64,000 bases of DNA from Bdellovibrionales bacterium (lineage in GTDB: Bacteria > Bdellovibrionota > Bdellovibrionia > Bdellovibrionales > CAYMLA01). The first letter of the stretch is position 1. Every line of letters begins with the position of its first letter. The stretch covers positions 2,096,784-2,160,783 of the forward strand of contig OZ244239.1 of the NCBI GenBank assembly GCA_965217115.1, in the 5' to 3' direction. Of this stretch, positions 25,765 through 46,113 are shown piece by piece. A program made the translations under genes and the position numbers. The notes below the pieces were generated by a model. The model was not told the origin of the DNA and searched no databases. It worked only from the letters and a program-made list of their open reading frames with translations.

Positions 25765-27319
25765 ATTTGATGTCACCCCTGAAGAATTCTCCATAATAAG
25801 AGATATTTTAGAGAAGAATCTTTCCAGTCATTGCAAGGTTTGGGTATTTGGCAGTCGCGCTAAAGGCAGTGCCTTATTTAACTCGGATTTGGATGTGGCA
25901 TTAGAGTGTAAAACTAAAATAGCACAAAAATTTTTAATACAATTAAAAACAGATTTTGAAGAGTCAAGACTTCCATATAAGGTGGATGTTTTAGATATAA
26001 AGAGTGTCGAACCTTATTTTAAAGAGATCATTGATAAGCAGAAAACCCCTTTTCCCCTTGAAATAAAAAATAAAGTGCCAAAATTAAGGTTTAAGGAGTT
26101 TAGTGGGGAGTGGGAAGAAAAGAAGTATGGTGAGATGTACTCTTTTTTCACAACTAATTCACTTTCAAGAGAAAACTTAAATTATGAATATGGTAAAGTA
26201 AAAAACATTCATTATGGTGACATACATACGAAATTTACAACACTCTTTGATCTTGAAAAAGAGCAAGTCCCTTTTGTGAATAAAGGGGTAGATATTTCAA
26301 AGATAAAATCTGAAAGTTATTGTTTGGAAGGTGATTTGGTAATTGCTGATGCTTCGGAAGATTATTTAGCTATCGGAAAAACTATTGAGATAATAAATTT
26401 GAATGGTGAAAAAGTAATAGCAGGGCTACATACCTTTTTAGCAAGGCCCAATAAGCACAAGATAGCATTGGGTTATATTAGCTATTTCCTACAGTCTTGG
26501 AAATTTAGAAAACAAATAATGACAATTGCTCAAGGTTCAAAAGTTTTAAGTATTTCTATACCAAGACTTTCTGCAACAAAACTAACCCTACCAACCAAAC
26601 CAGAACAACAAAAAATCGCCTCATTCCTAACAGCAGTGGACAGAAAAATAGCCCACCTAAATAAAAAGAAATCCTTACTTGAGAGTTATAAAAAAGGCCT
26701 AATGCAAAAAATATTCTCACAAACCATCCGCTTCAAAACCAACGACGGCAACAATTTCCCCGATTGGGAAGAAAAGAGGTTGGGGGATACATCAGAAATA
26801 GTTGGGGGAGGCACGCCTCCAACGGGTATTAAGAAATATTGGGATGGTGATATCCAATGGTTTACACCTACAGAAATCAAGAACAAGTATGTATGTAACA
26901 GCAATCGAACTATTACGCGGGCTGGGCTAGACGCATCCTCGGCAAAGTTACTGCCCAAGGGGACTCTACTTTTTTCTAGTAGGGCTACTATTGGTGAGGT
27001 GGGAATAGCGACCCAGGAATGTACAACTAATCAAGGTTTTCAGTCCTTCATTGTTAATCAAAATCATGAGCCTGAATTTTTATATAACTGGATACTCCAA
27101 AATAAGAAGAAATTTATTAAAGGAGCTTCAGGTTCTACTTTCCTAGAAATCGGAAAGAATGAAATTAAAAGAATAGAATTAAACTTACCAATAAAACCAG
27201 AACAACAAAAAATTGCTTCATTCCTAACAGCAGTGGACAGAAAAATTGAACAATTGAATGAAAAGCAAAAATTATTTGGTGAATTTAAAAAAGCACTCCT
27301 CCAACAGATGTTTGTATAA
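25754..27319 (+). CDS. hsdS: In-frame fusion of a minimal nucleotidyltransferase (MNT) domain to the type I R-M specificity subunit
   Basis: The first 100 aa or so carry the MNT signature VWVFGSRAKGSALFNSDLDVAL. There is no stop before a canonical HsdS N-terminus (VPKLRFKEFSGEWEEKKYGE). Two TRDs are separated by conserved helices (PEQQKIASFLTAVDRKI x2). The DNA direct repeats 26597-26650 and 27194-27246 are near-identical. An in-frame GTG at 26075 is a possible separate HsdS start but has no visible RBS. Confidence 0.8.
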   Translation: MKLKFDVTPEEFSIIRDILEKNLSSHCKVWVFGSRAKGSALFNSDLDVALECKTKIAQKFLIQLKTDFEESRLPYKVDVLDIKSVEPYFKEIIDKQKTPFPLEIKNKVPKLRFKEFSGEWEEKKYGEMYSFFTTNSLSRENLNYEYGKVKNIHYGDIHTKFTTLFDLEKEQVPFVNKGVDISKIKSESYCLEGDLVIADASEDYLAIGKTIEIINLNGEKVIAGLHTFLARPNKHKIALGYISYFLQSWKFRKQIMTIAQGSKVLSISIPRLSATKLTLPTKPEQQKIASFLTAVDRKIAHLNKKKSLLESYKKGLMQKIFSQTIRFKTNDGNNFPDWEEKRLGDTSEIVGGGTPPTGIKKYWDGDIQWFTPTEIKNKYVCNSNRTITRAGLDASSAKLLPKGTLLFSSRATIGEVGIATQECTTNQGFQSFIVNQNHEPEFLYNWILQNKKKFIKGASGSTFLEIGKNEIKRIELNLPIKPEQQKIASFLTAVDRKIEQLNEKQKLFGEFKKALLQQMFV

Positions 27320-27328
27320 AGGCTGGTA

Positions 27329-27886
27329 ATGAATATGGAAAGATGTAGAAAGTGGTTAAAGTTTTTTGGGATCGGACTTATATCCCTTGTGTTAATTTAC
27401 TTTCTCTGGATTTCTCTCATAGAATTATGGTGCATATTCTCCTTAGGCGATAAAGATATTAAATCTACGATAATAGGTATATTTGTCACTGCCGTTGTTT
27501 CTTTAACAGGTATTCTTATCTCTAAAAAATTAGATAGAAAAAATCAAGAACAAAAAGATCTAAGAGACCTTAGGACCCCATCCTATGAAGAGTTTATTTC
27601 TTTTGTGTTTAAAGCAATGTTTTCTGTAAAAAAAGGCAGGAAACCTATGGGTGTAGGGGAAATTAATAAAGAAATGGAAAGGTTGACCCCGTTACTTATA
27701 GCGCAAGCCTCTGAAAAAGTTCTCCTTGCGTATGAAAGATTCAGAGAAGAAGAAGATGATGAGATTGAAAGAATAAATACTATATTAAAGTTAGTTTTAA
27801 TAATGAGGGAAGATTTAGGCTACACAAATAAAGGTATTTCTATTGAGACCCTCAAAAATATTTTTATAATAAAAGAGAGCGATTAA
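27329..27886 (+). CDS. Hypothetical 2-TM membrane protein embedded in the type I R-M operon
   Basis: Two N-terminal hydrophobic helices (FFGIGLISLVLIYFLWISLI and IIGIFVTAVVSLTGILI) precede a charged helical C-terminal domain. It starts 10 nt after the hsdS stop. I recognised no family. Confidence 0.5.
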   Translation: MNMERCRKWLKFFGIGLISLVLIYFLWISLIELWCIFSLGDKDIKSTIIGIFVTAVVSLTGILISKKLDRKNQEQKDLRDLRTPSYEEFISFVFKAMFSVKKGRKPMGVGEINKEMERLTPLLIAQASEKVLLAYERFREEEDDEIERINTILKLVLIMREDLGYTNKGISIETLKNIFIIKESD

Positions 27887-27908: not shown

Positions 27909-28562
27909 ATGGATTCTTTTAAGAAGTTAATAAATGAAAATTCAATATATTTTGAGAAGATGGAGTATTATTTTGCGATCGCCCAAGAAGCTGAAGTAAA
28001 TTTGAGAGACAACCCTGATATTTCGATAGAAAGCTGTAAATCACTTATAGAAGGAGTCTCGAAGTATATTCTTAGTGTGTTATTAGCTGAAAATTATAAT
28101 GATAACACTATTTCAAGAAAGAAGTTTAAAGCCATAGTAAATACCATGTTAAAAGAGGTGGCTAAACGCAGAGGAGCCATTGATGACAACCATTTTATAT
28201 CCCAATGCTTGGAGTTTGTAGGGATTTTAGGTAAAACTAGAAATGACAGGGGAGACATTTGCCATGGAAGATGCTCTCCTAAGGAAGAAGTGAGTTCTCC
28301 TGAACTAGCAAAGCTTGTTTTCAGTATGACTGATGCTGTGTTGTCATATATACTAGATATTTTTTTTCAAATAGAGGACCCTCGAATCAAAGAAGAAGAA
28401 TCTTACGATCATGAATCTCTTAGGGATTTCAATGATTATTTAGATGAAGAAAATCCGTTGGATGATGGCATAAGCTATAGTAAAGCTATTTTTTATCAAG
28501 ACCCCATAGCGTATAAAGTAAAATATGATAATTTCTTAGACAATCAAGAGGCCAATCAATGA
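27909..28562 (+). CDS. Abi_C-like (HEPN-superfamily) abortive-infection-type protein
   Basis: From memory, SIESCKSLIEGVSKYILSVLL ... GILGKTRNDRGDICHGR matches the Abi_C (PF14355) pattern with an Rx4H motif (RGDICH). It has an acidic C-terminal tail, and its stop overlaps the hsdR start (ATGA). Confidence 0.5.
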   Translation: MDSFKKLINENSIYFEKMEYYFAIAQEAEVNLRDNPDISIESCKSLIEGVSKYILSVLLAENYNDNTISRKKFKAIVNTMLKEVAKRRGAIDDNHFISQCLEFVGILGKTRNDRGDICHGRCSPKEEVSSPELAKLVFSMTDAVLSYILDIFFQIEDPRIKEEESYDHESLRDFNDYLDEENPLDDGISYSKAIFYQDPIAYKVKYDNFLDNQEANQ

Positions 28563-31393
28563 CAATTCAATCCGAAAATACCCTAGAGAATTTGCTTATT
28601 GAGCAGTTGGTGTCATTGGAATACGAAAAAGTGTCAGCGAACACCGAAGAGAAGCTATTGGTTAATTTAAAGACCCAGTTGGAAAAACACAACAAAACGA
28701 CCTTTAGCGGGATTGAGTTTAAGCGCATTATGAACCACCTTAGCAGGGGTAGTGTTTTTGAGAAATCCAAGATTCTTAGAGACAAGTTTGTGCTTAATCG
28801 AGAAGATGGAACTAAGAGCTATATCAATTTTTTAGATAGCACACACTGGTGTCAGAACTTATTTCAAGTCACCAGTCAAGTCACCATTGAGGGGAAATAC
28901 AAAAACCGTTACGATGTAACTCTTCTAATAAACGGTCTTCCCCTTGTGCAAATCGAGTTAAAGCGCAGAGGGTCAGAACTTAAAAAAGCTTTTAATCAAA
29001 ATAACCGTTATCAAAGGCACTCTTTCCATGCCAATAGTGCCTTATTCGGGTATGTGCAAATATTTGTCATTTCAAATGGAGTCAATACTAAGTACTATGC
29101 CAATAATAGAGATCAATCTTTTAAACAAACTTTTTTCTGGGCTGATAAAGACAACAGAAACATAACAAACCTGAATAAATTCACAGGGAGTTTCTTAGAG
29201 AGATGTCATATCTCAAAAATGATCTGTAGATATATCGTTTTAGCCGAGAGTGATAAAAGACCTATGGTTTTGCGTCCATATCAGTACTACGCCACTGAAT
29301 TGATTCTTGATAGAGTGGTTAACTCCAATAGAAATGCTTACATCTGGCACACCACGGGGAGTGGAAAAACATTAACATCATTTAAAACTTCACAGTTACT
29401 AATGAAACTTCCGCAAGTGTATAAGGTGGTCTTTGTTGTAGATAGAAAGGATTTAGATTATCAAACCACTAAAGAATTTAATAGTTTTAGCAGTGGTAGC
29501 GTGGATGGCACAGACAACACCCAAGCCCTGGTGAGACAATTCAACGATGATACAAAACTCATTGTCACCACCATCCAAAAGCTAAATACGGCGATCAGTA
29601 AAGAGCGATATCTGTCCACCATGGAAAATTTAAAAGACAAGAACATCGTATTTATTCTCGATGAATGTCATCGTTCACAATTTGGAGAGACTCACCTAAA
29701 GATTACAAAGTTTTTCGAGAAAAGCCAGATGATTGGCTTCACAGGCACGCCGATATTTGCACAAAATGCTGTTGCCAATACGATTGGCAAGCGCACCACT
29801 GCCGATCTATTTGATAAATGCCTCCATAAATATGTCATCACTGACGCGATTGCTGACGATAATGTGTTGAAATTCTCCATTGAGTATGTCGGTAGATATA
29901 GACAAAGAGAAGGCAGTGCTAATAGTATTGATATTAAAGTTGAGAATATTGACACTAAAGAGGCACTAGAATCTGATGATAGATTAGAGAAAATCACAAA
30001 CTACATTATTGCAAACCATGGTCGTAAGACACATGCTAAAGATTTTAATGCCATGCTTGCTGTGAGCGGTATTTCGACACTAACAAAGTACTATGAGCTA
30101 TTTAAATCAAAAAAGGAAAGGGGTGAGCATAATCTAAAAATAGCAACCATCTTTAGTTACAGTGCCAATGAGGATGATAAAGACGCTGATGGTATTCCTG
30201 AATCAGAGGGCGCAAATGTTGATGAGGCCAATATTAATCAGCACAGTCGAGATAAATTAGAGAGTTATATTGAAGATTACAACCAGTTATTTGGCACGAA
30301 GTTTACCACCAAGGAGTCGCAGAGTTATTATAACTATTATAATGACATTGCTAAACGAGTAAGAAACAGGGAAATTGATATTTTGCTAGTGATTAATATG
30401 TTTTTGACAGGTTTTGATAGCCCTACACTTAACACCCTGTATGTGGATAAAAAGTTAAAGTATCATGGACTCATTCAAGCCTTTTCACGGACCAATAGGA
30501 TTGTGGCTGAAAAGAAATCCCAAGGAAATATTGTAAGTTTTAGAAATCTTAAAGAGGCCACCGATGAAGCGATCACCCTATTCTCAAATAAGGATGCCAG
30601 AGAGAAAATATTGATTCAGCCTTATGAGGAGTATGTCGAGTTGTTTAACAAAGCATTTGCAACCCTACTGGGCATAGCACCCAGTGTTAATAGCGCGGGT
30701 GCCTTAGTGACTAAGGAAGAGCAGCTAAAATTCATTAAAGCCTTTAGAGAGTTGATGCGGCTAAAGAATGTTCTCTCTGGATTTAGTGATTTTAATTTCT
30801 CAGATTTATCTATGGGAGAGCAGCAGTTCGAGGATTACAAGTCTAAGTATCTCGATTTGTATGAGGCAGTTAAGTACAGTATGGAGGATAACAGAGTATC
30901 TATACTTGATGATGTGGATTTTGAACTGGACCTCCTCCACAGAGATGAAATCAATGTGGATTATATATTGAAGCTTCTTACTGAATACAATGGAAGCACA
31001 GAAGAACAATGGGATGAGAAGAAGGAAAATATTTTTAATCTCATATCTGGCCAAGAACACTTAAGGTCTAAGAGAGAATTAATTGAAGAATTTATCGACA
31101 ATAACTTAATAAATATCTCTAACGGAGATGATATTGAGACTGAGTTTAATAAATTCTGGGAGGAACAGAAATCAAAGGAACTTACTGAGTTATGCGATGA
31201 AGAGAATTTAGACAAGCCTCGCGTTAAGAGCCTTATCGAAACCTACATCTACGATCAACGTGAGCCACTGGGCGATGATATCGCTAAAACACTACAAACC
31301 AAATTCAAATTACTAGAGCGACAAAAAGTGATCTCAAGGGTCCTTAATATGCTCATGAAGCATATTGAAAAATTCTATAACGCAAAGACCTGA
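28559..31393 (+). CDS. hsdR: Type I restriction endonuclease R subunit
   Basis: The N-terminal PD-(D/E)xK motif is RYDVTLLINGLPLVQIELKR. The helicase motifs are HTTGSGKTLTSF (I), ILDECHRSQ (II, DEAH-like), GFTGTP (III) and QAFSRTNR (VI). Confidence 0.9.
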   Translation: MTIQSENTLENLLIEQLVSLEYEKVSANTEEKLLVNLKTQLEKHNKTTFSGIEFKRIMNHLSRGSVFEKSKILRDKFVLNREDGTKSYINFLDSTHWCQNLFQVTSQVTIEGKYKNRYDVTLLINGLPLVQIELKRRGSELKKAFNQNNRYQRHSFHANSALFGYVQIFVISNGVNTKYYANNRDQSFKQTFFWADKDNRNITNLNKFTGSFLERCHISKMICRYIVLAESDKRPMVLRPYQYYATELILDRVVNSNRNAYIWHTTGSGKTLTSFKTSQLLMKLPQVYKVVFVVDRKDLDYQTTKEFNSFSSGSVDGTDNTQALVRQFNDDTKLIVTTIQKLNTAISKERYLSTMENLKDKNIVFILDECHRSQFGETHLKITKFFEKSQMIGFTGTPIFAQNAVANTIGKRTTADLFDKCLHKYVITDAIADDNVLKFSIEYVGRYRQREGSANSIDIKVENIDTKEALESDDRLEKITNYIIANHGRKTHAKDFNAMLAVSGISTLTKYYELFKSKKERGEHNLKIATIFSYSANEDDKDADGIPESEGANVDEANINQHSRDKLESYIEDYNQLFGTKFTTKESQSYYNYYNDIAKRVRNREIDILLVINMFLTGFDSPTLNTLYVDKKLKYHGLIQAFSRTNRIVAEKKSQGNIVSFRNLKEATDEAITLFSNKDAREKILIQPYEEYVELFNKAFATLLGIAPSVNSAGALVTKEEQLKFIKAFRELMRLKNVLSGFSDFNFSDLSMGEQQFEDYKSKYLDLYEAVKYSMEDNRVSILDDVDFELDLLHRDEINVDYILKLLTEYNGSTEEQWDEKKENIFNLISGQEHLRSKRELIEEFIDNNLINISNGDDIETEFNKFWEEQKSKELTELCDEENLDKPRVKSLIETYIYDQREPLGDDIAKTLQTKFKLLERQKVISRVLNMLMKHIEKFYNAKT

Positions 31394-31477: not shown

Positions 31478-33379
31478 TTAGGTGTCATTATTTTTTATAT
31501 CTACTGGGTTAGACCAAATTTTTTCTAAATTTACAGTGTCGCTATTTGGCTGATTAGCTTTATCTAAGAGATCTATAGTGGTCTTCACAGGTAAATTTGT
31601 TGCTACTCCAGCAAAAAAACAACTTCCAACTGATAAAATAGGTATGGATTCAAAAGATAGCTTGTCTAAGTAAGCAACGGCTTTATGAATTGCATTTATA
31701 TCAGAATCATTTAATAATTTGTGAATGAAATAATTATGCAACTGTGAAATCATTGTGGTTGATATATCCTGTGGCCTCTGGCTGGCGATGGTTAAAAATG
31801 TATTAAATTTTCTACCCTCTTTGATAATCTCCTCAAATATTTCTAATCTGTAATCTTTCCAACTTTCGCTCTCTCGTGCTGATTTATCCGATAGGATATT
31901 GTGAGCTTCATCAATGATCAAATGTAATGATTTTTCTTTAAAATCTTTGTCTGCCTTATGAGTTTCATATAATTTTTTGATTATCAACAATGGCAATGTT
32001 TTTTTGATTTCTGTATTAACATCCTTCAAGTTAATAATGATTAAGTTTTTTTTATCAAAGATATCGGAGTCACTTCCTGTATTTAAAACTTTTTCAATAT
32101 CTTTTTGCTTGCTCTTTAGTTTGTTGATAGCTGGCGCAATATGGTCATTTTGAGCTTTATCATTATAAACGTCATAAATTATTTGCAAATACAGGAAATG
32201 TATAAATTTTGATATAGAATCTTTTGGGAACTCATAAGTGTCAATTCTTCTATATATGTCTAACTCTTCAATATCATTATCAACTAGCTTGTGTCGGGGG
32301 TTACCATAATTATTTGGAATAAACCCTTTAGGATCTACTCCTGATCCACCACCATGCCATTCTAATCTAGCAAATATTTCTTCATCAGTTTTTTTTATTA
32401 TATTTTCGAAATAGTCAAGTAATGTAAAAGCCTTATCTTTTAAGATCATGCGGTAGATTTTTTTTAGCTCAGATCTTAATGAATTTTTGAAATGGTTTAA
32501 AGATTCGTTATGCACTTTGTGTACACGTTTATATAATCTGATAGTTCTTTCTATAAAAGGCTTCTGTGTTTTTTCTGTTGCATTTGCTAAAATTGAAAGT
32601 AACTCAATGTCAATTAAATCTTTTTCATGTAATGGAATTTTATCTTCCCCGTTCTCTGTTGCTGTGCTTAGAGTATAAACTTTTTTATTCTCTGTGATAA
32701 TTTGATCTTGGTCCTCATCCTCATCTTTTCCACCATACTCGCCGTTAAAATCTATAATTACAAACCGAGATTTTTCCTTAAAATCGTCACGTTCCTCCAT
32801 GAGCTTAAAAAGTTCATAGTATATTTTTGCTAGAGTATGGGATTTCCCACTTCCAGTATTACCAAAAATACCGATGTGGCTTGCAAATAGTTGGTTAATA
32901 GATACTTTTATTTTTTGTGCAGGTTCATCTGACAGAGAGCCGATAGTAATCGTTTTTTCATCTTCTCTATGGAACTGATGCAGTTGACGAAATTCATCTC
33001 TGTCGAGTAAATAACAATCATTGTCAACAAGTGGCATTTCTTTTATACCTTGCCTAAACTTACTTCCTTCAAAATAACCAGCTAATGAAACTTCTAAAAA
33101 CCGCTCAATATTATCCTCTTCCTTGTTATATTCTTTATGAGTAACTGCTTTAGTCCCTATAGATTCACCTTCAATTTTACCAATAATATTAGTAAATCCC
33201 TTGGTTATTTTAATGTAACTATTAACGGAGATATTTTTTAAGACTTGACCATCAAATAAGAGATGAGATGCATTTTTGTTTTTATTAACCTTAATTCTAA
33301 CAGATCTACCAGAGATGGAGTGGACTGAGCCAACTATAAAAACTGACTCCCTCTTTAATTGACTCTTGACATCACGCAT
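31478..33379 (-). CDS. HerA-like (DUF87) ATPase, partner of the SIR2 protein
   Basis: Walker A GIFGNTGSGKSHT and Walker B HLIIDEAHNIL. ATG at 33379 overlaps the SIR2 stop by 8 nt (an alternative ATG lies at 33403). Confidence 0.75.
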   Translation of the reverse strand: MRDVKSQLKRESVFIVGSVHSISGRSVRIKVNKNKNASHLLFDGQVLKNISVNSYIKITKGFTNIIGKIEGESIGTKAVTHKEYNKEEDNIERFLEVSLAGYFEGSKFRQGIKEMPLVDNDCYLLDRDEFRQLHQFHREDEKTITIGSLSDEPAQKIKVSINQLFASHIGIFGNTGSGKSHTLAKIYYELFKLMEERDDFKEKSRFVIIDFNGEYGGKDEDEDQDQIITENKKVYTLSTATENGEDKIPLHEKDLIDIELLSILANATEKTQKPFIERTIRLYKRVHKVHNESLNHFKNSLRSELKKIYRMILKDKAFTLLDYFENIIKKTDEEIFARLEWHGGGSGVDPKGFIPNNYGNPRHKLVDNDIEELDIYRRIDTYEFPKDSISKFIHFLYLQIIYDVYNDKAQNDHIAPAINKLKSKQKDIEKVLNTGSDSDIFDKKNLIIINLKDVNTEIKKTLPLLIIKKLYETHKADKDFKEKSLHLIIDEAHNILSDKSARESESWKDYRLEIFEEIIKEGRKFNTFLTIASQRPQDISTTMISQLHNYFIHKLLNDSDINAIHKAVAYLDKLSFESIPILSVGSCFFAGVATNLPVKTTIDLLDKANQPNSDTVNLEKIWSNPVDIKNNDT

Positions 33380-34487
33380 CGCTGCTATCCTCTTTTGTGG
33401 CATTCATTTTTTTAAATATTTGATCAGTTATTCTTTCTAAACCATAGTTATCTCCATTTTTAGGTGCGATAATTTTTATATTATGATTTTTTGATGTCTC
33501 CATTAATTCGTTAAGATATGCTCCACTGTCCTCTGAATAAGAAAAAACATACACTTGCAACGTTGGATTTGATCTTGCTGCTCTTTTCGTGATCTCTTTA
33601 ATATGTTGGTCCTTCATTGAGAAACCAATGACAAATAGGACAGAATTTTCTTTCTCCAATTCATTAGAATATGAGCGTAACAGTTCATAGTAGTATTTGT
33701 TTAAAACTGTCTCAGAGAACTTAGTCTCTTCAGGGTTAACAACAAGGATCTTTTTTTGATATTCTTTTAGGAAAGTTCTTTTTTTCTTTATTAAAGAACG
33801 CTCAAAATGAGACAAGTCTGAAGATAAATATATTTTCCTATTCTCATTGTTGAGATCAGACTCGTTATATTTCCAATTAACAGAGCCGTGAATTTTAAAA
33901 ATATTAAATATAGGGATTTCAGAACGTTTATCAAAATGTTGACTTCTTTGTATAATTGATTGCTTAAAATTACTCAAATCAAAAACAGGGTTCATTTTAC
34001 CTAGAAAGCCATCATTATAATGAATTTCTAAATCTTCTAATACTTTTTCAAAAAAAATATCAATATTTGTCGTGAATATATTTACCTGTCGTCCTATTAC
34101 AGTTGTTTTTCTATCTAGAATGAGCTTTGATAGAGTCGTAAGGAAATTCATATAGTTCCTGTACGTTATCCATAAGCTTATCTTGTTGGGCTCAGCTTCT
34201 TCTTGTAATTTATCGTGTCTATATTTAGAGCAGGGCTCTTTGAAATCATATGAAATTATATATTTATTTGGAAGCATCACTTTTTCAAAATACTCTTTGT
34301 ATTTATCTGATTTTTCGACTGCCTTTTTTGCGTTATTTATATCGTGCTCAATATTATTTAACGTCGGAAGGCATGGCTGAGATATGCCTGATCCCATTAA
34401 GAAATTAATATTTGCACTAGCAAATATGTCTTTGAACCTTGGCAATAAATGCTCTAATTCATCTTGAGTATTATCCTCGTCACTCAC
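33372..34487 (-). CDS. SIR2-like (SIR2_2) domain protein of a SIR2-HerA defense pair
   Basis: NFLMGSGISQPCLPT (Rossmann Gly loop), FKIHGSVNW and FVIGFSMKDQHI are typical of defense-associated SIR2_2 proteins. The GTG start at 34487 is preceded by AAAGGTGG (the track start is 34496). Confidence 0.75.
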   Translation of the reverse strand: MSDEDNTQDELEHLLPRFKDIFASANINFLMGSGISQPCLPTLNNIEHDINNAKKAVEKSDKYKEYFEKVMLPNKYIISYDFKEPCSKYRHDKLQEEAEPNKISLWITYRNYMNFLTTLSKLILDRKTTVIGRQVNIFTTNIDIFFEKVLEDLEIHYNDGFLGKMNPVFDLSNFKQSIIQRSQHFDKRSEIPIFNIFKIHGSVNWKYNESDLNNENRKIYLSSDLSHFERSLIKKKRTFLKEYQKKILVVNPEETKFSETVLNKYYYELLRSYSNELEKENSVLFVIGFSMKDQHIKEITKRAARSNPTLQVYVFSYSEDSGAYLNELMETSKNHNIKIIAPKNGDNYGLERITDQIFKKMNATKEDSSDA

Positions 34488-34581
34488 TTGAACCACCTTT
34501 CTGTTGTTTTCATAAAATAAAAAGAGACCAAAATTTTAATGACACAATTCAAAAAATAAATTGCCATCAGATAAAAATCTG

Positions 34582-34986
34582 TTAAATAATTAGGATAACT
34601 AAGGCTAAAAAGATAATTTCTATTAAATAAAAAATAGAGAGCGTTAAAGAAAGAATTGCACTAATCCATTTGTTGTTTTTTCTAGTTAATTCAGAGAGGG
34701 TGTTCATTTTAAAATTGGTGGTTTCTTGCTTGCGGACATCATCATAGATACATCTAAAAAACCTTTCTTGCCAAAGAAAATAACCATCTAGTATCCAGAA
34801 CCCTAGTATCGGGATAAAAAAACAAGTTAAAATATAAGAAGAGTTATCTTGTTTTGATATGAGTAAAATAGCCCCAGTAAGAAGCCCCATACTCCATGAT
34901 TTTATATAAAAAGAATTTTGAGCGAGCCTGTTTATGATGCCTTGTATGAACTCTAAATGTTTTATTACCATCTCATTATCAGTCAC
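34582..34986 (-). CDS. Small 3-TM membrane protein, translationally coupled to the upstream TIR-like gene
   Basis: GTG start 1 nt after the TIR-like stop (TGAAGTG). It has an amphipathic N-terminal helix and hydrophobic segments WSMGLLTGAILLI, YILTCFFIPILGFWILDGYFLW and WISAILSLTLSIFYLIEIIFLALVILII. I recognised no family. Confidence 0.5.
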   Translation of the reverse strand: MTDNEMVIKHLEFIQGIINRLAQNSFYIKSWSMGLLTGAILLISKQDNSSYILTCFFIPILGFWILDGYFLWQERFFRCIYDDVRKQETTNFKMNTLSELTRKNNKWISAILSLTLSIFYLIEIIFLALVILII

Positions 34987-34987
34987 T

Positions 34988-35638
34988 TCAAACCTCTTTA
35001 CAAAGATCGTACTCTTCTTTTTTATCTCTTATACTGATGGCCTTATTTATATAACAATCTGTATCATTAATAAAATCCTTCCATTCAATACTTTTAATGT
35101 ATGAACCTTTCCTATATTTACAATGTTTACACCTAGCTGTATGTTTCTTTTTTCGATTGAACATATTATTCTTTAAAATTCCGAATAAACGACTTGTTCT
35201 AAGAGTTCGAAGATTACAGTGGGCGCAAGTATTTTCTCTGATAAAGTAAGCATATTCTTCATTTGAGTCAGGTAAAACAACAGCAAGTATAGCATTAGTT
35301 TGGCTTGTCACGTCGTTTCTGGTAACCTTTTTTAATGAATAAGCTATCTCCCAAGGAATCCATTGATCATCTTCAGGCTTAGAATCTTCTTTCATATTTG
35401 GGGATATCAAAACGATAGTTACGCTGCTATCATAAATCTTATCTTTTAAGCGAGATTCAATAGTTTCATCCTTAAAATGACTTAGATCCTCATTGCCTTC
35501 TCCTTTATAAATGTCATTAGTAAAACAGTTCTCCTCAAGATAATCTACGTAATCACGGGCAGTGCCATGACGTCCTTCTGGTAATTTGTAAACATCGTTA
35601 TCGCGATATTTATATGAAACAAATATTTTTCGCGCCAT
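34988..35638 (-). CDS. TIR-like domain protein (DUF1863 / ThsB-like) with a C-terminal Cys-rich, zinc-ribbon-like segment
   Basis: RKIFVSYKYRDND at the N-terminus, SSVTIVLISPN, and WIPWEIAYSLK (a conserved Glu context) fit, from memory, the MTH538/DUF1863 TIR-like pattern. The Cys segment is CAHCN...CKHCK. RBS GGAG lies 7 nt upstream of the ATG. Confidence 0.6.
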   Translation of the reverse strand: MARKIFVSYKYRDNDVYKLPEGRHGTARDYVDYLEENCFTNDIYKGEGNEDLSHFKDETIESRLKDKIYDSSVTIVLISPNMKEDSKPEDDQWIPWEIAYSLKKVTRNDVTSQTNAILAVVLPDSNEEYAYFIRENTCAHCNLRTLRTSRLFGILKNNMFNRKKKHTARCKHCKYRKGSYIKSIEWKDFINDTDCYINKAISIRDKKEEYDLCKEV

Positions 35639-35972
35639 TTCATCGCTCCGTTTTTATTTTACTGTTTTGCCTGTGAATCTCAACCTTTGAGTGTTTGCTT
35701 GATATTACATGCCCAGCTGCATTCCCACCAGAATATTATTGAAATTCCATAGGAGTGTCTCTTTTCAGTGCAAGGTTTTATTGGAGAATCGTCATTGCAG
35801 GAACACAGTATGAATATCGAAATTGAAACGGGTGCTAGGGAAACACCAAGACGCCTCATATTGATATTAAAAGCAACCCTGCACACAGAGGGGAATAGTT
35901 ATTAAGGCATCTCTACTTTTATCCGATGAATCTAGGGTGAGAGTTGTTAGTTGATTTGGGAGAGAGAGTTAG

Positions 35973-36965
35973 ATGTTTTCTAGGAAAGTTTTAATGGGGT
36001 TGTTTTTAAGTCTTTTTTTTGGATTTGTTGTGTTTGCAGATCTTAAGGAGACTGAGGTCACTCAAAAAGATCCCCTACAAGGTGATGTGGGGGCTCAGTA
36101 TCATTTAGGGCTTATGTACTATGGCGGGCAAGGGATTCCAAGGAATCATAAAACAGCTAGAGGTTTGTTCAAAAAAGCGGCCCTTCAAGGTTATGCTCCA
36201 GCTCAGAATAGCTTAGGGATTATGTACAATAGAGGGCATGGCGTCCTAAAGAATTATAAAAAAGCGGCGGCTTTGTACAGAAAGGCAGCCCTCCAAGGCT
36301 TTGTTCAAGCTCAGTATAATTTAGGGGTTATGTACTACAATGGGCAAGGCGTTCCAAAGAATTATAAAAAAGCGGCGGCTTTGTACAGAAAGGCAGCCCT
36401 CCAAGGCTTTGTTCGAGCTCAGTATAATTTAGGGGTCATGCACTATGCTGGGGAAGGTGTTCCAAAGAGTTATAAGAAAGCCATCGGTTTGTACAAAAAG
36501 TTAGACCTTCAAGGTTATGCTCAAGCTCAGTACAATTTAGGGGTGATGCACTATAGTGGGGAAGGCGTTCCAAAGAATTATAAAAAAGCGATGGCTTTGT
36601 ACAGAAAAGCAGCCCTCCAAGGTCATGCTCCAGCTCAGTATAATTTAGGGTCCATGCACTATGGTGGGCAAGGCGTTCCAAAGAATTATAAAACAGCCGC
36701 AGGTTGGTACAAAAAATCAGCTCTCCAAGGCGATCCCAAATCTCAGTATAATCTAGGGGTGATGCATATTGAAGGGCAGGGCGTTTCAGAGAACTATATC
36801 ACAGGCTATGCTTGGCTATTTATAGCTGCATCAAGAAAGTATCCGGCGGCGAGTCATCTTTTAAATATTTTAGAAAAGGAAATGACAAAGTCACAGATAG
36901 TTAATGCTCAGAAGCTACTCTCAAAATTAAAGTCAAAGTCCAGAAATTTGAATTCTCTAAAATAA
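35973..36965 (+). CDS. Secreted Sel1-like (SLR) repeat protein
   Basis: Signal peptide plus about 7 tandem 36-aa units, AQYNLGVMYYNGQGVPKNYKKAAALYRKAALQG. The units starting at 36252 and 36360 are near-identical at the DNA level (period 108 bp). Confidence 0.85.
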   Translation: MFSRKVLMGLFLSLFFGFVVFADLKETEVTQKDPLQGDVGAQYHLGLMYYGGQGIPRNHKTARGLFKKAALQGYAPAQNSLGIMYNRGHGVLKNYKKAAALYRKAALQGFVQAQYNLGVMYYNGQGVPKNYKKAAALYRKAALQGFVRAQYNLGVMHYAGEGVPKSYKKAIGLYKKLDLQGYAQAQYNLGVMHYSGEGVPKNYKKAMALYRKAALQGHAPAQYNLGSMHYGGQGVPKNYKTAAGWYKKSALQGDPKSQYNLGVMHIEGQGVSENYITGYAWLFIAASRKYPAASHLLNILEKEMTKSQIVNAQKLLSKLKSKSRNLNSLK

Positions 36966-37095: not shown

Positions 37096-37500
37096 CTAAA
37101 GGTGAATATTAAGGGTTAGTGGCAAGTTATGCAAAATCTTTTTGAGTGTTTCTCCTGTAATGTTTGTGTACCCCTCGGCTTCATACCTAGAGATCATTCT
37201 TACTGGCACATCGACTTTTCTTGCGAAAGCCTCCTTTGTTAAGTTTTCTGCAATTCTATATTTGATAGGTAATAACAAGATTTCTTCAGGCGTATCTATT
37301 TTTATTGCTTTAAGCCCTTTAGAGCAAAGTTTTTCATACTCAGAGACATCATCTTCAAGTTTTTGCTTCAGAGCTTCTGTTTGGATAACAGAGGATTTTG
37401 CAAGAATATTTTTCGCTGATTTTCTCATTTCAATAAGAGACTCAGATAAAGAATCAATTTTTTTCTTAGCTGCATTTAGTTGTCGATCACTTGTAATCAT
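37096..37500 (-). CDS. HigA-like XRE-family HTH protein (putative antitoxin)
   Basis: The N-terminal helix is ITSDRQLNAAKKKIDSLSESL. The C-terminal HTH is LTKEAFARKVDVPVRMISRYEAEGYTNITGETLKKIL. The size and architecture are typical of HigA-type antitoxins. Confidence 0.55.
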   Translation of the reverse strand: MITSDRQLNAAKKKIDSLSESLIEMRKSAKNILAKSSVIQTEALKQKLEDDVSEYEKLCSKGLKAIKIDTPEEILLLPIKYRIAENLTKEAFARKVDVPVRMISRYEAEGYTNITGETLKKILHNLPLTLNIHL

Positions 37501-37510
37501 AATGCACTCC

Positions 37511-37867
37511 TTAAAGGTTTATTTGAATAATGCCTTTGGCCTCGCCATTTTTGTTAGTTTGAAAAAAATCAGGAAAAGGTTTGTTTGTACTTTTCTCCTT
37601 CTGTTCTGCAATAAAAAAGTCTAAACTATATTCTTTTAGAATGTTCTCTCTACATATTTGAGACTCTTCGGCAGAGCTAAAGTTCCAGAAGCTTTCATCG
37701 AGTAAATGTAGATTTTCTTCTTTCACTCCATTGATCTCCCAACAACCATCAATATCATTTGGTACCCCCTTAGCTGTGGTGAAACTTCCATGTTTCCACG
37801 ATTTTTTACCCACAGACTCTGCGGAAGAGGCACTTTTTTTATTTCTATCAGATGCTCCAAATTTCAT
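37511..37867 (-). CDS. Possibly N-terminally truncated DUF6932-like (nucleotidyltransferase-fold-like) protein; putative toxin partner
   Basis: From memory, HGSFTTAKGVPNDIDGCWEI resembles the GSFvTxKxxPnDiD signature. The ORF start lies inside the 3' end of the DUF262 gene (20-nt overlap), and the motif sits unusually close to the N-terminus. Confidence 0.3.
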   Translation of the reverse strand: MKFGASDRNKKSASSAESVGKKSWKHGSFTTAKGVPNDIDGCWEINGVKEENLHLLDESFWNFSSAEESQICRENILKEYSLDFFIAEQKEKSTNKPFPDFFQTNKNGEAKGIIQINL

Positions 37868-39518
37868 TATAGGCTTTTTCCGACAAGTACTTAGTTCTCT
37901 CTAGAATCTTTTCTTTTGACCATTCGGGAGCCTCAAGAATATTTTTCTCGAAATGGGGATATTTGCTTACAAATATTTCTTTTTTATCAATAAAAGATTT
38001 ATTCTTAAGTTCCTCGCTATTATCTTTAGCTGTAACAAAGACAAGATTTCCAATATTAGCTTTATCGTTCATAGGCAGATCATCAACACTCTGAGAAGCA
38101 ATATGCTCAATTGTCATTAAACTGTAGTCTAGAGGTGTTCCTCTTCGAGAAGCTTCGTCAAATTTCCTCAAAATATATTGAATTATTTTTTTATCTTTAG
38201 TAAATTTATCTGAATATTTTAGATCAGCAAATGCAAGCTCAAACTCCTCATATGTTGGCTTATCCTGAGCTAACTTATTTTTAACATTATTTAAAACTGC
38301 GACCTTTTCTTGTTCATCTGGAGCGTGCCTTAGCTCTCTTGCTTTTTTAGCATAGTAAGATGAAAGACCACCTGAAGAACGCTGTGAGGTAACTGCATTG
38401 TGCATGAAGTGAAACTTTTCAATATAGTTAATGTATTTTTTTGCGTTTTTTAAGTTTATTTTTGTTGCATAATATTCAGCTAATATTGCAAGAACTATTG
38501 GCAATGGTTGTCTAACCTTAAAAACAGACAATGCTTCTAAGGATCTTTTTAAATTTTCTTCTTCATTAGTCCACTCCATATACGTTGGTTCATATATAGC
38601 TCTGTAATATTTAGACTCAATTAGCATTGCTTCTAAATGTTCTGATACATTTTCTGAATTGACGTTGTTTTTAAATTCTTTAAAAAGTTTCTTTTGTGTT
38701 GTGTATGTTTCTTTAGATAACCAGTAGTGGTAAATGAAAGTATTTATATCAATATCTATTTTTGAGGTTTGAATATTCCCGAGCATTTCCTTCCACTTGT
38801 CACGTACTCGATCCAATGTTTCTGTTTCACTTCTTAAAAGTTTTGTAATATGGTTTTTCACTAAGTCTGATGGCTGTAGATCTTTTCCACGCGTATTCAA
38901 TGTTTCAAATATAATATACGCGTCATCTTCATTATCAAGTTCAATAAATATTACTTTTAATCTAACAACCTGATCTCTTAAAGCCTTCAGATAATTAATT
39001 TTTTCTTTATCTGATTCAAAGTCATTAAGTTCACTACGAATTAAGCCTTTAAGAAGTTCAAAAGCATCTCTTAAAGCTTTTTCTTCATCTGTTATTGAGG
39101 TCATATTTTCATTATTATTAAAGCTTTGAATGCATTTATGAAAGTATGGATAAGACATTTCTGTCTGCAGAATAAACTGATCTTTATTATCCAGATCTTT
39201 TTTCATGATAAGTCGCTGAATGCCCTTCGCTAATTCTTCATTGTCTAAAATCTTTAAATGATCTCGAATCGCAGAGAATATTAAAGTTAAAGATGTTAAT
39301 CTTTGCTGGCCGTCTACAATCCCAAATAAACTTTGTTGCTTTTTGAAAACGACCATTGAACCAATGAAATATTCATTATCTGCTCTGTTCGTAATATCTG
39401 CCCAAAACTCTACTACATTATCTTTTTCCCAAGAGTATGGTCTTTGAAAGCGAGGTATTTGGTAAAAGCCACTTTCCAAAATTGATTTTATATCTTTATC
39501 TATGCTTGAAACTTTCAT
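37848..39518 (-). CDS. DUF262 / DUF1524 (GmrSD-like) nuclease, type IV restriction-like
   Basis: The DUF262 N-terminus is YQIPRFQRPYSWEKDNVVEFWADI ... DGQQRLTSL. The C-terminal His-Me-type region is MTIEHIASQS. ATG at 39518 lies 7 nt after the dcm stop (track start 39578, alternative 39536). Confidence 0.8.
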   Translation of the reverse strand: MKVSSIDKDIKSILESGFYQIPRFQRPYSWEKDNVVEFWADITNRADNEYFIGSMVVFKKQQSLFGIVDGQQRLTSLTLIFSAIRDHLKILDNEELAKGIQRLIMKKDLDNKDQFILQTEMSYPYFHKCIQSFNNNENMTSITDEEKALRDAFELLKGLIRSELNDFESDKEKINYLKALRDQVVRLKVIFIELDNEDDAYIIFETLNTRGKDLQPSDLVKNHITKLLRSETETLDRVRDKWKEMLGNIQTSKIDIDINTFIYHYWLSKETYTTQKKLFKEFKNNVNSENVSEHLEAMLIESKYYRAIYEPTYMEWTNEEENLKRSLEALSVFKVRQPLPIVLAILAEYYATKINLKNAKKYINYIEKFHFMHNAVTSQRSSGGLSSYYAKKARELRHAPDEQEKVAVLNNVKNKLAQDKPTYEEFELAFADLKYSDKFTKDKKIIQYILRKFDEASRRGTPLDYSLMTIEHIASQSVDDLPMNDKANIGNLVFVTAKDNSEELKNKSFIDKKEIFVSKYPHFEKNILEAPEWSKEKILERTKYLSEKAYNEIWSI

Positions 39519-39525
39519 TGTTGAA

Positions 39526-40701
39526 TTAGCCCCCATACTCTTTTGGAAGTTCTTTCGTAAAATTAACTTGAAACTCATCTTTATTATAGTTAGGAATAAG
39601 CTTCAAATTTTTTGAGTTTACTTTGTCATCAAAAAACTGTTTTCTAATTTCTTTACCAAGAAGTTCACCAATAGCAGAAGGGACAGCGTTTCCAATTTGC
39701 TTTTGAACATTAGAGTTCCCGCCTAATATTTCCACATCATCAGGAAAAGTTTGAATTCTGGCCATTTCTCTCATTGTGAGTCTTCTGTTATTCCAATGAA
39801 AAGGGCCGATAGCTGTTCCTGGTTGTGCTTGAATTGTCCAACTTGGTTTATCCGGGTGAAGTTTTAATAAGAAACTCCAATATCTTGAACGCCATTTAAA
39901 GAGTGGTTGTCCATTCCCCCTTTCGGTATGGAAAAGATAATTTTCTCCGGGAGGTATTGAAGGTAGCAATGCGCCCCATTTTCCTCCAACTTCTGATTCG
40001 TGATGAGTTTCCTCTTCTGGTACAAGATCACCAATTGCATCCCAAGCCGTTCTGAAAGTTTTGCCTCCAATTGCAAGCATTGGATTGTCATCATCTTTAG
40101 GAAAGAAACGAGCTTTTGGAAAATCAAATTCGTAACCATCTCTTGAACCAATAATGAAAACACGTTCTCTGATCTGAGACACACCAAAATGAGCTGTGTT
40201 TATTACTTTCCATTTAAAAGTGTAATTTACATCATTTCGTTCATTGATTTCTTTAATTGTATTTTCAAGGTAGCGAAGACCTTCATCTTTTCCCTTATAA
40301 GCAAGGCCAAAGACATTTTCTAATATAAAAGCATGAGGAAGAGTATCTTCTAAAACTCGCATATATTGATTAAGGGTATTTGATCTAGGGTCTTTCAATC
40401 TTTTAGCATCACCATCTCTCCAATACCCAGATTTTGAAAAAGGTTGGCATGGTGGTCCACCAATTAAAAGTCCAGCGTCGCCTCTTTTAAGCTTGGCTGC
40501 TTCTAAAATAGTTGCACTATCTACATTTTCAATTCTATCTTCAATAATAGGCCAGTTACGATTATGTCTTAATGTTTTACAACACCACTTATCCATTTCA
40601 ACTGCAACAGCAGTATTAAAACCTGCAGCTTCAACTCCGTAGTCGAGTCCTCCTGCACCTGTATAAAGACTAATTACTTTCTTGAGATTTTTTTTACTCA
40701 T
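39526..40701 (-). CDS. dcm: DNA (cytosine-5)-methyltransferase
   Basis: Motif I LYTGAGGLDYG, motif IV GGPPCQPFS, motif VI FILENV, motif VIII QIRERVFIIG, and motif X GNAVP. Confidence 0.9.
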   Translation of the reverse strand: MSKKNLKKVISLYTGAGGLDYGVEAAGFNTAVAVEMDKWCCKTLRHNRNWPIIEDRIENVDSATILEAAKLKRGDAGLLIGGPPCQPFSKSGYWRDGDAKRLKDPRSNTLNQYMRVLEDTLPHAFILENVFGLAYKGKDEGLRYLENTIKEINERNDVNYTFKWKVINTAHFGVSQIRERVFIIGSRDGYEFDFPKARFFPKDDDNPMLAIGGKTFRTAWDAIGDLVPEEETHHESEVGGKWGALLPSIPPGENYLFHTERGNGQPLFKWRSRYWSFLLKLHPDKPSWTIQAQPGTAIGPFHWNNRRLTMREMARIQTFPDDVEILGGNSNVQKQIGNAVPSAIGELLGKEIRKQFFDDKVNSKNLKLIPNYNKDEFQVNFTKELPKEYGG

Positions 40702-40805: not shown

Positions 40806-41039
40806 ATGCTGAAATTTAATTTAAAAAATGCAATGCAAGCTTATGAGGCAAAGACGGGCCTTCACCTAACCTATGAAGAACTAGGGCAAATGACTAGCAT
40901 TTCATCAGATACTTTGAAGTCTATCGCTACTCGGCCAGGCTACAACGCGACGCTCAAAATGATTTCAGATATTGCTTCTGTACTCAATATTGACCCAATA
41001 AAATATTTTGAATGGAAAATGGATAATAATGGCGAATAA
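40806..41039 (+). CDS. XRE-family HTH protein, probable R-M controller (C) protein
   Basis: A 77-aa HTH protein (LTYEELGQMTSISSDTLKSIATRPGYNATLKMISDIASVL), divergent from the methyltransferase and overlapping the start of the downstream nuclease gene. This is the classic C-R arrangement. Confidence 0.6.
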   Translation: MLKFNLKNAMQAYEAKTGLHLTYEELGQMTSISSDTLKSIATRPGYNATLKMISDIASVLNIDPIKYFEWKMDNNGE

Positions 41040-41895
41040 CAATATAACACTAGCAAAATTAACTGGATTATCAGAACAAGACCTTGCAGAAGTTTTTGCT
41101 AAAAATCCTCGCGCCTATATGGCTGTAAAGGGAGCTGTTGCTGAAAAGCACCTAGAGAAGCTTCTTCTAGAATATCAAGCAAACGGGAAGATTAAATGCT
41201 TTACGACGGCAAGTGGTGACTTCGATAAGGATTTCTATGTCATTCTTAACGATGGTAAAAAAATATCACTAGAATGCAAAAATATTCAAGTTCTAAGCAC
41301 ATCAAACAAAACTCTAGTATCACAATATATTAACTTTCTAATTGATAACAGTTACCTTGATGAGAGCTGGCTAAAAGGGACTATAAACAATTTAATTAAA
41401 AGTGGTGGTATTTTGCTTGAGCCAGACTCTAAAGACTCAATTGATTCTTTAGAGGATATATTTAAATTAATCCTAAGCCAAAAGACTAAAACGACAGACA
41501 AAGTATATAAATCATTCCCTCAAGACCTTCGTGAATCAGGTGTTCCTAGATATGAGTTTAGCTCTTTGCTAGTTAAAGAAAGTGACGCTCTTGTAAATGA
41601 TATTGATACATTTATTACTCAGTTTGATGATCATCCGTTATCTATTGATTTTCAAAGAACAAGAAATTCTACCGATGATGATGGTGATACCAAGAAACAA
41701 AGATTCTATTGTCTTGATGAGATAGATGTTGTTGGGGCCTGCCTCTTTTCAAGAACAATGAAGTGGCAATTTGTCTTTGGACACTCTAGACATTTCGCAA
41801 TTCATAAAAAATACGAAGATCGCTATGCTAATAAGCTTCTTATTGAACCTGGTAAATGGTCATCAGACTTAATCTCTTCTCTATCAATTAAATAG
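41029..41895 (+). CDS. Putative type II restriction endonuclease (PD-(D/E)xK)
   Basis: Candidate motif DFDKDFYV...KISLECKNI (D...ExK). Its position directly downstream of and overlapping the C gene, opposite an m5C methyltransferase, supports the call. I recognised no family. Confidence 0.4.
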   Translation: MANNNITLAKLTGLSEQDLAEVFAKNPRAYMAVKGAVAEKHLEKLLLEYQANGKIKCFTTASGDFDKDFYVILNDGKKISLECKNIQVLSTSNKTLVSQYINFLIDNSYLDESWLKGTINNLIKSGGILLEPDSKDSIDSLEDIFKLILSQKTKTTDKVYKSFPQDLRESGVPRYEFSSLLVKESDALVNDIDTFITQFDDHPLSIDFQRTRNSTDDDGDTKKQRFYCLDEIDVVGACLFSRTMKWQFVFGHSRHFAIHKKYEDRYANKLLIEPGKWSSDLISSLSIK

Positions 41896-43778: not shown

Positions 43779-44594
43779 TTATTGAATATTGAAAAGGTCA
43801 ATGCTTAAGCAAGCTAATTCCTCTGGTGTCGTTGTATCAATAACTCCACTGACCTCTTGTACTGTGTTTAGCAGTATCGCTTTAATTTTTTTTAAATCTT
43901 TCTTTGAAACAGTTAAAGGTGCTGTGAAGAAGAGCTCTCTATTTGAAGCTTTTTCGAGTTTTTCAATAGCTTTTAAACGCCAGTTTATATGATGTCGATT
44001 TATTAAAATTGAGTCCCTGTCTAAGTGCGTTTTAGAAATACCTTGAGATAATTTACCATCAACTTCAAGACATAACCCTGAGGAATTAAGAAATTTTAGA
44101 ACCTTTGATAAATCTTTTTTGTTAATATTAAAAAGCTGTTCTATATCATCAATAGAGCTTACCGTTTCAAGAGATGTTGCAAGCCATACGGCCATGAACC
44201 TCCAGTCAGAATAATATTGTGATTTCTGTTGTTCTGTTAACTCAACAGATTTTTTAATTCTAGACTTTACTGTAAAATATTTATCTTTTATCTGTTGAAG
44301 AATTGATTGATAGTACTCTTTAAGTTCCACTGTTCCAGATCGGGAATGATTTATAAGCACCATAAAGTAATCTCTATCATTTTCCGTTAGTCCAAAGTAG
44401 TCACATACCTTAAAAGCTTGCTCCACTGAAAACTCTTTAGAACCACTTAAGACTTGAGAGATTAAACTCGTATGGACATTTAAATACTTAGAGATGCGTA
44501 AAAACTCGCCTCGGCCATTTTTTGGCAGTGATGATATTCTATAGTTTAAATAATTTTTATAATTATCAAATTGGTATATAGAGTCCATTTGCAA
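43779..44594 (-). CDS. TIGR02147-family (DUF4423-type) HTH protein, paralog of 21083-21907
   Basis: NYKNYLNYRISSLPKNGRGEFLRISKYLNVHTSLISQVLSGSKEFS. It has the same length and architecture as the 21083 gene. Confidence 0.6.
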   Translation of the reverse strand: MQMDSIYQFDNYKNYLNYRISSLPKNGRGEFLRISKYLNVHTSLISQVLSGSKEFSVEQAFKVCDYFGLTENDRDYFMVLINHSRSGTVELKEYYQSILQQIKDKYFTVKSRIKKSVELTEQQKSQYYSDWRFMAVWLATSLETVSSIDDIEQLFNINKKDLSKVLKFLNSSGLCLEVDGKLSQGISKTHLDRDSILINRHHINWRLKAIEKLEKASNRELFFTAPLTVSKKDLKKIKAILLNTVQEVSGVIDTTTPEELACLSIDLFNIQ

Positions 44595-46036: not shown

Positions 46037-46113
46037 TGGAGCGGGTGATGGGATTCGAACCCACGGCCTCAACCTTGGCAAGGTTGCGCTCTAGCCAGCT
46101 GAGCTACACCCGC
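46037..46113 (-). tRNA. tRNA-Gly (anticodon GCC)
   Basis: The reverse complement reads GCGGGTG-TA-GCTCAGCTGGCTAGAGC-G-CAACC-TTGCCAA-GGTTG-AGGCC-GTGGGTTCGAATCCCAT-CACCCGC-TCCA. It forms a clean cloverleaf with anticodon loop TTGCCAA and an encoded CCA. Confidence 0.9.

Follow-up and report, generated by a model that had tools for sequence, protein, structure and literature searches.

Two genes on the minus strand of a contig from a Bdellovibrionales bacterium (OZ244239.1, assembly GCA_965217115.1) very probably constitute a type V Thoeris anti-phage system. They are located at 34582-35638 of a stretch of 64,000 nucleotides (nt) that was analysed as a whole and is referred to here as the window. 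The pair consists of thsB, encoding a TIR-domain protein of 216 amino acids (aa), and thsF, encoding a 134-aa protein that is predicted to be the signal-activated membrane effector; the assignment is based on homology, a conserved gene neighbourhood, and published work on homologues. An earlier note on this DNA had described the two genes as a signalling TIR combined with a membrane effector, which fits their homology to type V Thoeris, and had further proposed that they might represent an unrecognised, new system. This novelty is not sustained because existing definitions, i.e. the PDC-M50A models of PADLOC-DB v2 (2023) and that of type V Thoeris, capture the pair, and such a capture is what the note itself had named as decisive against it. 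Thus, thsB-thsF is almost certainly a phage-defence pair and should be regarded as a new example of a known, recently validated system, not as a new system.

Homology to type V Thoeris

Type V Thoeris was described as the combination of a TIR protein (ThsB) and an effector with three transmembrane (TM) segments, labelled 'DUF2270' and renamed ThsF (Yirmiya et al., bioRxiv 10.64898/2025.12.03.692087, December 2025). In that study, the systems of Bacillus thuringiensis DAR 81934 and Bacillus sp. 1NLA3E protected B. subtilis, both validated ThsBs produced 3' cyclic ADP-ribose (3'cADPR) upon infection, added 3'cADPR was toxic to cells with the B. thuringiensis system, and the Tad1 sponge lowered type V defence (10.64898/2025.12.03.692087). 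AlphaFold3 modelling in the same paper predicted ThsF to form a homo-heptameric ring in which the pockets between protomers are positively charged. Moreover, many TIRs of cluster 2742576382 bear the label 'DUF2270 - Type V' in its Table S1, whose labels carry some noise by the authors' own warning (10.64898/2025.12.03.692087). The ThsB of the window is 56% identical (E 1e-72) to a protein with this label (IMG 2558966873), and its full-length layout is that of the type V TIRs of this cluster.

The validated effector of B. thuringiensis was located via the published ThsB sequence, which led to a 100%-identical protein (P0241) whose locus was then read. The gene directly downstream of this ThsB (L092:3773-4198) encodes 141 aa with three hydrophobic segments, and a 271-aa gene upstream encodes a protein without any. 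Identity between the window ThsF and the 141-aa protein is 39% over the full length (132 aa; BLASTP, E 1e-29), the alignment of the ThsF family matches the latter with a probability of 99.85% (hhalign, E 7.5e-31), and the PDC-M50A models matched by the two proteins are the same. Since the homology is seen by all three approaches, the window pair most likely is a member of type V Thoeris. Both effectors also have the motif FW.LDG.FL.QE..FR..YD.VR in common, and conserved positions near the N-terminus differ between the window protein and that of B. thuringiensis (H10 to Y, N19 to S, WSM to WTV). The general layout is likewise shared, with two genes encoding a TIR and a three-TM effector of ~135-140 aa, situated in a defence island. 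However, the window ThsB has 216 aa and a C..C...C..C insert, whereas the ThsB of B. thuringiensis has 252 aa and an N-terminal extension, and the host of the window pair has a guanine and cytosine (GC) content of ~40%, with a contig of 2.17 Mb, and is not a Bacillus.

Genomic neighbourhoods of ThsF homologues

A scan with one genome per species yielded 275 ThsF loci, 80 of which were fetched and are the basis of all per-locus counts given here; most of them are metagenome-assembled genomes (MAGs) of symbionts from sponges and invertebrates (Poribacteria, Binatia, Gammaproteobacteria, Nitrospirales). A TIR gene was present within 3 kb of the ThsF homologue in 46 of the 80 loci, a pairing far beyond chance. 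Full-length ThsBs of the window type (49-58% identity) were encoded directly upstream of ThsF in 18 loci and within 2 kb in three more, and a different ThsB-type TIR of ~163 aa was found beside ThsF in ~32, mostly directly downstream. The latter matches the PADLOC model PDC-M50B (E 2.4e-56) and resembles ThsB of B. cereus (6LHY, E 7.7e-33). Several loci contained both kinds of TIR in the order TIR-ThsF-TIR(-TIR).

Mobile elements carry ThsF homologues too, and there they accompany further TIR clades. Plasmid matches of ThsF were dominated by Klebsiella (40 records) and Escherichia (36 records), and a conjugative plasmid of Klebsiella pneumoniae (L089, NZ_CP024543.1) as well as a plasmid of Vibrio chagasii encode ThsF beside a TIR. 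A plasmid of Priestia megaterium has ThsF together with a TIR of the B. thuringiensis type and a second TIR, a plasmid of Clostridium botulinum (L090, NZ_CP063819.1) carries a ThsB-ThsF pair and a phage terminase gene, and 14-kb prophage-like elements of the Vinavirales type in Vibrio cyclitrophicus (L094, PQ189363.1, 1-5018) encode ThsB and ThsF alongside an integrase. The thsB-thsF pair of Shewanella sp. VB17 stands alone among housekeeping genes. Sharing of one small effector by many TIR clades, irrespective of gene order, is the pattern seen in Thoeris.

Several observations weigh against the assignment. The window ThsB belongs to cluster 2742576382 and not to the clusters of the two validated ThsBs. 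3'cADPR showed no toxicity towards cells with the type V system of Bacillus sp. 1NLA3E, so the activating ligand may vary, and a type V system of Vibrio cholerae did not protect E. coli (10.64898/2025.12.03.692087). Further, PF10028 (DUF2270) was not matched by the window ThsF and seven relatives in hmmscan up to E 10. The validated ThsF of B. thuringiensis had no PF10028 match at E ≤ 0.001 either, and its precomputed Pfam field was empty; the label therefore cannot discriminate ThsF membership with hmmscan, and the 'DUF2270' designation of the paper probably came from a more sensitive method. Finally, ThsF was found without a detectable TIR within 3 kb in 34 of the 80 loci, mostly in sponge-symbiont MAGs.

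Searching these 34 loci with jackhmmer for TIRs of 12 clades of Table S1 gave just two marginal matches. We also considered an alternative recurrent partner, and a Pfam scan of 51 flanking proteins revealed a heterogeneous set (Shedu, Schlafen/AlbA_2, HsdR, Eco57I-like, AAA_21, TPR, and housekeeping families) in which none recurred. ThsF copies without a TIR (e.g. L005, L008, L013, L015, L020, L031, L045, L058, L065) are often located within type I restriction-modification (RM) operons or beside Shedu, Schlafen/AlbA_2, and Eco57I-like genes, and a single contig of Poribacteria holds three copies of ThsF (L058, L060, L065).

Organization of the gene pair

Both genes were identified by open reading frame (ORF) calling and homology. 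The thsB gene (34988..35638, minus strand) starts with ATG, preceded by GGAG 7 nt upstream, and thsF (34582..34986, minus strand) starts with GTG. They meet in the junction TGAAGTG, where the TGA stop of thsB (34990-34988) and the GTG of thsF (34986-34984) are separated by one base, and a strong AAGAGG is located 6 nt 5' of the GTG; the two genes are translationally coupled. The N-termini of thsF homologues align at the same residue (MTDKE/MNDKE), which makes the GTG start credible. Compared to their homologues, both ORFs are full length and free of frameshifts, and all near-invariant residues of ThsB and ThsF are intact.

A candidate sigma-70-like promoter (TTGAGA-16-TAAAAT, 10/12 in a consensus scan) is located at 35656..35683 on the minus strand and ends 18 nt before the start of thsB. 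The promoter and terminator scan gave no more promoter-like or terminator-like sites in the region than in shuffled sequences, and the site upstream of thsB is thus regarded as a candidate only; thsB-thsF probably has its own promoter. Directly 3' of the TAA stop of thsF, a weak A/T-rich hairpin with a 5-bp stem, CAGATTTTTATCTG, was read from the sequence (34568..34581, minus strand). It lies within the 85-bp spacer that separates thsF from the GTG of the following SIR2 gene (34496) and was not scored as terminator-like in the terminator scan. The details reported in the earlier note, i.e. the TIR strand, WIPWEIAYS, the CxxC pairs, TGAAGTG, the 85-bp spacer, and the hairpin, were all correct, with the genes on the minus strand.

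ThsB, the TIR protein

ThsB is a ThsB-family TIR enzyme by its sequence, with a conserved catalytic-type glutamate. Its TIR core comprises approximately residues 1-125, including the motifs KIFVSYKYRD (residues 4-13) and WIPWEIAYS (residues 93-101) with the putative catalytic Glu97, and is followed by a C-terminal extension (~126-216). The protein matches Pfam PF08937 (ThsB_TIR, E 4.4e-8) and, over residues 1-215, the PADLOC ThsB model PDLC00428 (E 9.9e-82). Its AlphaFold2 model (predicted local distance difference test, pLDDT, 76; predicted TM-score, pTM, 0.80) superimposes in Foldseek on 9VYL_A with a TM-score of 0.88, 51% identity, and E 7.6e-24, and together these matches bear out the ThsB-type TIR claimed beforehand. 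When a profile of 32 ThsB homologues was compared to PDB, the same entry was the one solved structure retrieved, over the whole length (9vyl_A, E 1.9e-93). PDB 9VYL, released 2026-01-28, is entitled 'Crystal structure of BdThsB1 with NAD' and described as 'Putative cyclic ADP-D-ribose synthase TIR1'; a literature search found no papers on 9VYL or BdThsB. BdThsB1 is from another organism than the window ThsB and is a full-length homologue that includes the C-terminal extension and a CPYCNC...C..H motif. Glu97 (P95-W96-E97) is invariant in 32 of 32 homologues, lies inside the PF08937 match, and aligns with 'PWEISY' of 9VYL.

The C-terminal extension carries two cysteine motifs (C138-x2-C141 and C170-x2-C173). 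All of the 32 homologues have C141 and C170, 28 have C138, and most have Cys or His at position 173, where the window protein has Cys; this C..C...C..(C/H) pattern suggests a small metal-binding insert. The 'zinc ribbon sensor' proposed earlier stands only in part: the cysteine pattern is conserved in the close subfamily, but it is absent from remoter TIRs of cluster 2742576382 in Table S1 and therefore looks structural. A structural role, as judged from this distribution, is more likely than a universal role in sensing.

ThsF, the small membrane protein

ThsF is predicted to have three membrane-spanning helices. Hydropathy indicates hydrophobic segments at ~28-44, 51-69, and 107-134, the first of them only moderately hydrophobic, and the N-terminal helix is amphipathic, with a hydrophobic moment of 1.73 compared to 0.79 for TM1. 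In the AlphaFold2 model (pLDDT 80.9, pTM 0.69), helices span residues 3-44, 57-85, and 114-133. The amphipathic helix and the three hydrophobic segments noticed at first reading are thus present. An exact look-up of the window ThsF gave no recorded entry. All four PDC-M50A models of PADLOC are matched (PDLC04686, E 8.7e-36; PDLC04685, PDLC04687, and PDLC04684, the weakest with 8e-17). No Pfam or NCBIfam family is assigned to the window ThsF, and since current models of both databases give no match for ThsF, standard annotation pipelines leave it as 'hypothetical protein'. DUF3278 was matched below threshold (E 0.026-0.0009) recurrently across members, and nothing was read into this match; 8xMP likewise gave only a sub-threshold match in the Pfam and NCBIfam scans. 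Neither Foldseek of the monomer model (E ≤ 0.001) nor the ThsF profile gave a match in PDB, and a monomer of three helices is uninformative for structural searches.

The family is large, with >1000 clusters at 90% identity and, in a library of representatives at 50% identity, 4643 members at E ≤ 1e-3 and 2692 at E ≤ 1e-10. Among 133 diverse representatives, the most conserved residues were H10, L11, Q15, R20, N24, S25, F26, K29, W31, P59, F63, W64, L66, D67, L71, Q73, E74, R75, R78, Y81, M94, S113, T115, and F119; the polar ones among them are in the N-terminal helix and in the one that follows TM2, on what is predicted to be the cytoplasmic side. In two members, P0459 (378 aa) and P0444 (362 aa), a SLOG domain is fused N-terminally to a complete C-terminal ThsF module; that of P0459 matches PF18163 (E 1.7e-15), and the N-terminus of P0444 is similar in sequence, with no Pfam match. 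In type I ThsA, SLOG is the domain that senses 3'cADPR, and the fusions thus fit ThsF as a membrane effector driven by a nucleotide signal. They may correspond to the '4TM SLOG' class of putative effectors, for which tests in E. coli showed no defence (Yirmiya et al., bioRxiv 10.64898/2025.12.03.692087).

Comparison with other known systems

PDC-M50 is an unpublished candidate system of PADLOC-DB v2 in which A is a small membrane protein and B a TIR of ~162 aa; no papers on it were found in a literature search. The A models are all matched by the window ThsF, and the ~163-aa TIR of ~32 loci matches PDC-M50B. However, the window TIR matches PDC-M50B only weakly (PDLC04688, E 2e-5, residues 1-104), with PDLC00428 as its strong and best match, and its gene comes first. 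Type II Thoeris combines ThsB with a Macro-TM effector and a His-ADPR signal, and type VII combines ThsB with a SLATT effector and cyclic ADP-ribose (cADPR). Both share with the window pair the logic of abortive infection, where a signal made by a TIR leads to a membrane-disrupting effector, but the 134-aa effector of the window has neither a Macro nor a SLATT domain (no Pfam match at E ≤ 1) and is much smaller, so that any ligand site must sit within this small protein itself. In type I, ThsB acts with a SIR2-SLOG ThsA and 3'cADPR. The window encodes a ThsB-type TIR whose signal is probably the same, and the ~163-aa TIRs beside ThsF elsewhere resemble the B. cereus ThsB, whereas a SLOG-containing ThsA is absent and the adjacent SIR2 is of the SIR2-HerA type.

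Proposed mechanism and alternative explanations

Based on the published homologues, phage infection would cause ThsB to convert NAD+ to a cyclic ADP-ribose isomer, for which 3'cADPR is the best guess, being the product of both validated type V ThsBs. This signal would bind the ThsF oligomer at a pocket on its cytoplasmic face, and candidate pocket residues might be H10, Q15, R20, and K29 in the N-terminal helix and at the start of TM1, and D67, Q73, E74, R75, R78, Y81, and R85 at the end of TM2 and in the next helix. The conserved basic and polar residues predicted on the cytoplasmic side of ThsF are compatible with the published ring model with charged pockets. Activated ThsF would then damage the membrane, and the infected cell would stop before the phage cycle is completed.

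An alternative with some weight, although we consider it unlikely, retains the Thoeris architecture with other chemistry, i.e. ThsB would produce 2'cADPR, canonical cADPR, N7-cADPR, His-ADPR, or an unknown signal to which ThsF is tuned. The placement of the window ThsB outside the clusters of validated type V ThsBs, the differences in the N-terminal part of ThsF (H10/Y, N19/S, WSM/WTV), the pairing of related TIRs with different effectors, and the failure of 3'cADPR to activate the system of Bacillus sp. 1NLA3E (Yirmiya et al., bioRxiv 10.64898/2025.12.03.692087) all point in this direction. On the other hand, 3'cADPR is made by both type V ThsBs that were assayed, and the core motif of the window ThsF is shared with the 3'cADPR-responsive protein of B. 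thuringiensis. Far less probable is a reversal of roles in which the TIR kills by depleting NAD+ and the small membrane protein serves as sensor, anchor, or regulator. Many bacterial TIRs in CBASS, Pycsar, and pAgo do deplete NAD+, and a TIR may be the NADase effector in configurations that are not verified, as Yirmiya et al. warn (10.64898/2025.12.03.692087). Yet in validated type V systems, the signal is made upon infection by the TIR alone, and the toxicity of added 3'cADPR is limited to cells that carry the system. Moreover, at least five unrelated clades of TIRs are paired with ThsF, in either order, and ThsF is also fused to SLOG, which is the pattern of a shared effector and not of a TIR-specific regulator.

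That thsB-thsF is an inactive remnant, or that the GTG ORF is not expressed, might be suspected from the non-ATG start of thsF and from the many related loci that hold ThsF without a TIR, but the complete, frameshift-free ORFs with all near-invariant residues present, the strong AAGAGG before the GTG, and an N-terminus that aligns with homologues render this very improbable. Least credible is a single four-gene system of ThsB-ThsF and the adjacent SIR2-HerA genes, e.g. one in which the TIR signal activates the SIR2 NADase, a cross-talk that the earlier note had considered besides treating the pair as a separate unit. The SIR2 gene (33372-34496, minus strand, 374 aa) and the HerA gene (31478-33403, minus strand, 641 aa), with called ORFs that overlap by 32 nt, share their strand with thsB-thsF, only 85 bp separate thsF from SIR2, no terminator-like site was found in between, and type I Thoeris does use a SIR2 effector. 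However, the two proteins match the SIR2-HerA models of PADLOC (SIR2 E 3.4e-63 over the whole length, HerA E 7.8e-182), and Pfam detected SIR2_2 only in the SIR2 protein, with no SLOG, Macro, or other ligand-binding domain. SIR2-HerA is a self-sufficient known system, and tblastn gave zero matches of SIR2 or HerA in the 80 ThsF loci. Given that TIRs accompany ThsF in 46 of these loci and SIR2 or HerA in none, the adjacency is best explained as co-location in a defence island. The separate unit is further corroborated by the occurrence of the pair alone in Shewanella and on plasmids, and a functional dependence of thsB-thsF on SIR2-HerA is not indicated. Since no terminator-like sites were found between them, co-transcription is possible, and there may be read-through from thsB-thsF into SIR2-HerA. 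Type V Thoeris with the two genes thsB and thsF thus continues to be the preferred reading.

The defence island

The pair is embedded in a low-GC island (~25000-46113) with a GC content of 0.31-0.37, compared to 0.40-0.47 in the flanks, that ends at a tRNA-Gly gene (46037-46113, minus strand). It contains type I RM genes (hsdM, hsdS, hsdR), SIR2-HerA, Thoeris V, an HTH/DUF6932 pair, GmrSD, and a Dcm methylase; no integrase was detected among the ORFs scanned. Between hsdM (23777-25336) and hsdR (28559-31393), the type I RM operon includes four additional ORFs. The first (25348-25764) encodes an NTase_sub_bind (HEPN-like) protein, the second (25754-27319, 521 aa) combines a Pol-beta nucleotidyltransferase N-terminus with HsdS domains, the third (27329-27886, 185 aa) has no family, and the fourth (27909-28562, 217 aa) matches Abi_C weakly. 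These genes may represent a HEPN-MNT pair and unknown defence cargo.

Directly upstream of thsB, the opposite strand encodes a SEL1/TPR-like repeat protein of 330 aa (35973-36965) whose N-terminus is hydrophobic, and its gene lies in a GC-richer patch (0.38) within the low-GC island. GmrSD is located at 37848-39578 and the Dcm C5-methylase at 39526-40701. Next to the latter, an ORF of 295 aa without family (41008-41895) may encode the cognate endonuclease. Beside GmrSD, a 134-aa HTH_3 and a 118-aa DUF6932 protein are encoded 10 nt apart (37096-37867) and might constitute a regulatory module or one that resembles a toxin-antitoxin pair. Roughly at either side of the island lies one of two DUF4423 paralogues, both on the minus strand (21083-21907, 274 aa; 43779-44594, 271 aa).

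Implications for ThsF and type V Thoeris

For the annotation of this genome, two 'hypothetical' genes become thsB and thsF within a stacked defence island. Current Pfam and NCBIfam scans miss ThsF entirely. The value for the field is modest and lies in an uncharacterised ThsB clade paired with ThsF and in the very large size of the ThsF family, in which the SLOG-ThsF fusions and the frequent copies without a TIR could be followed up. It is conceivable, albeit speculative and rather doubtful, that the signal of the ThsB clade with the cysteine insert is not 3'cADPR but another molecule, to which its ThsF is tuned, and, separately, that ThsF copies without a TIR are shared effectors for TIR signals produced elsewhere in the genome or act with a non-TIR partner. 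If either of these readings were true, type V Thoeris would extend beyond its published description.

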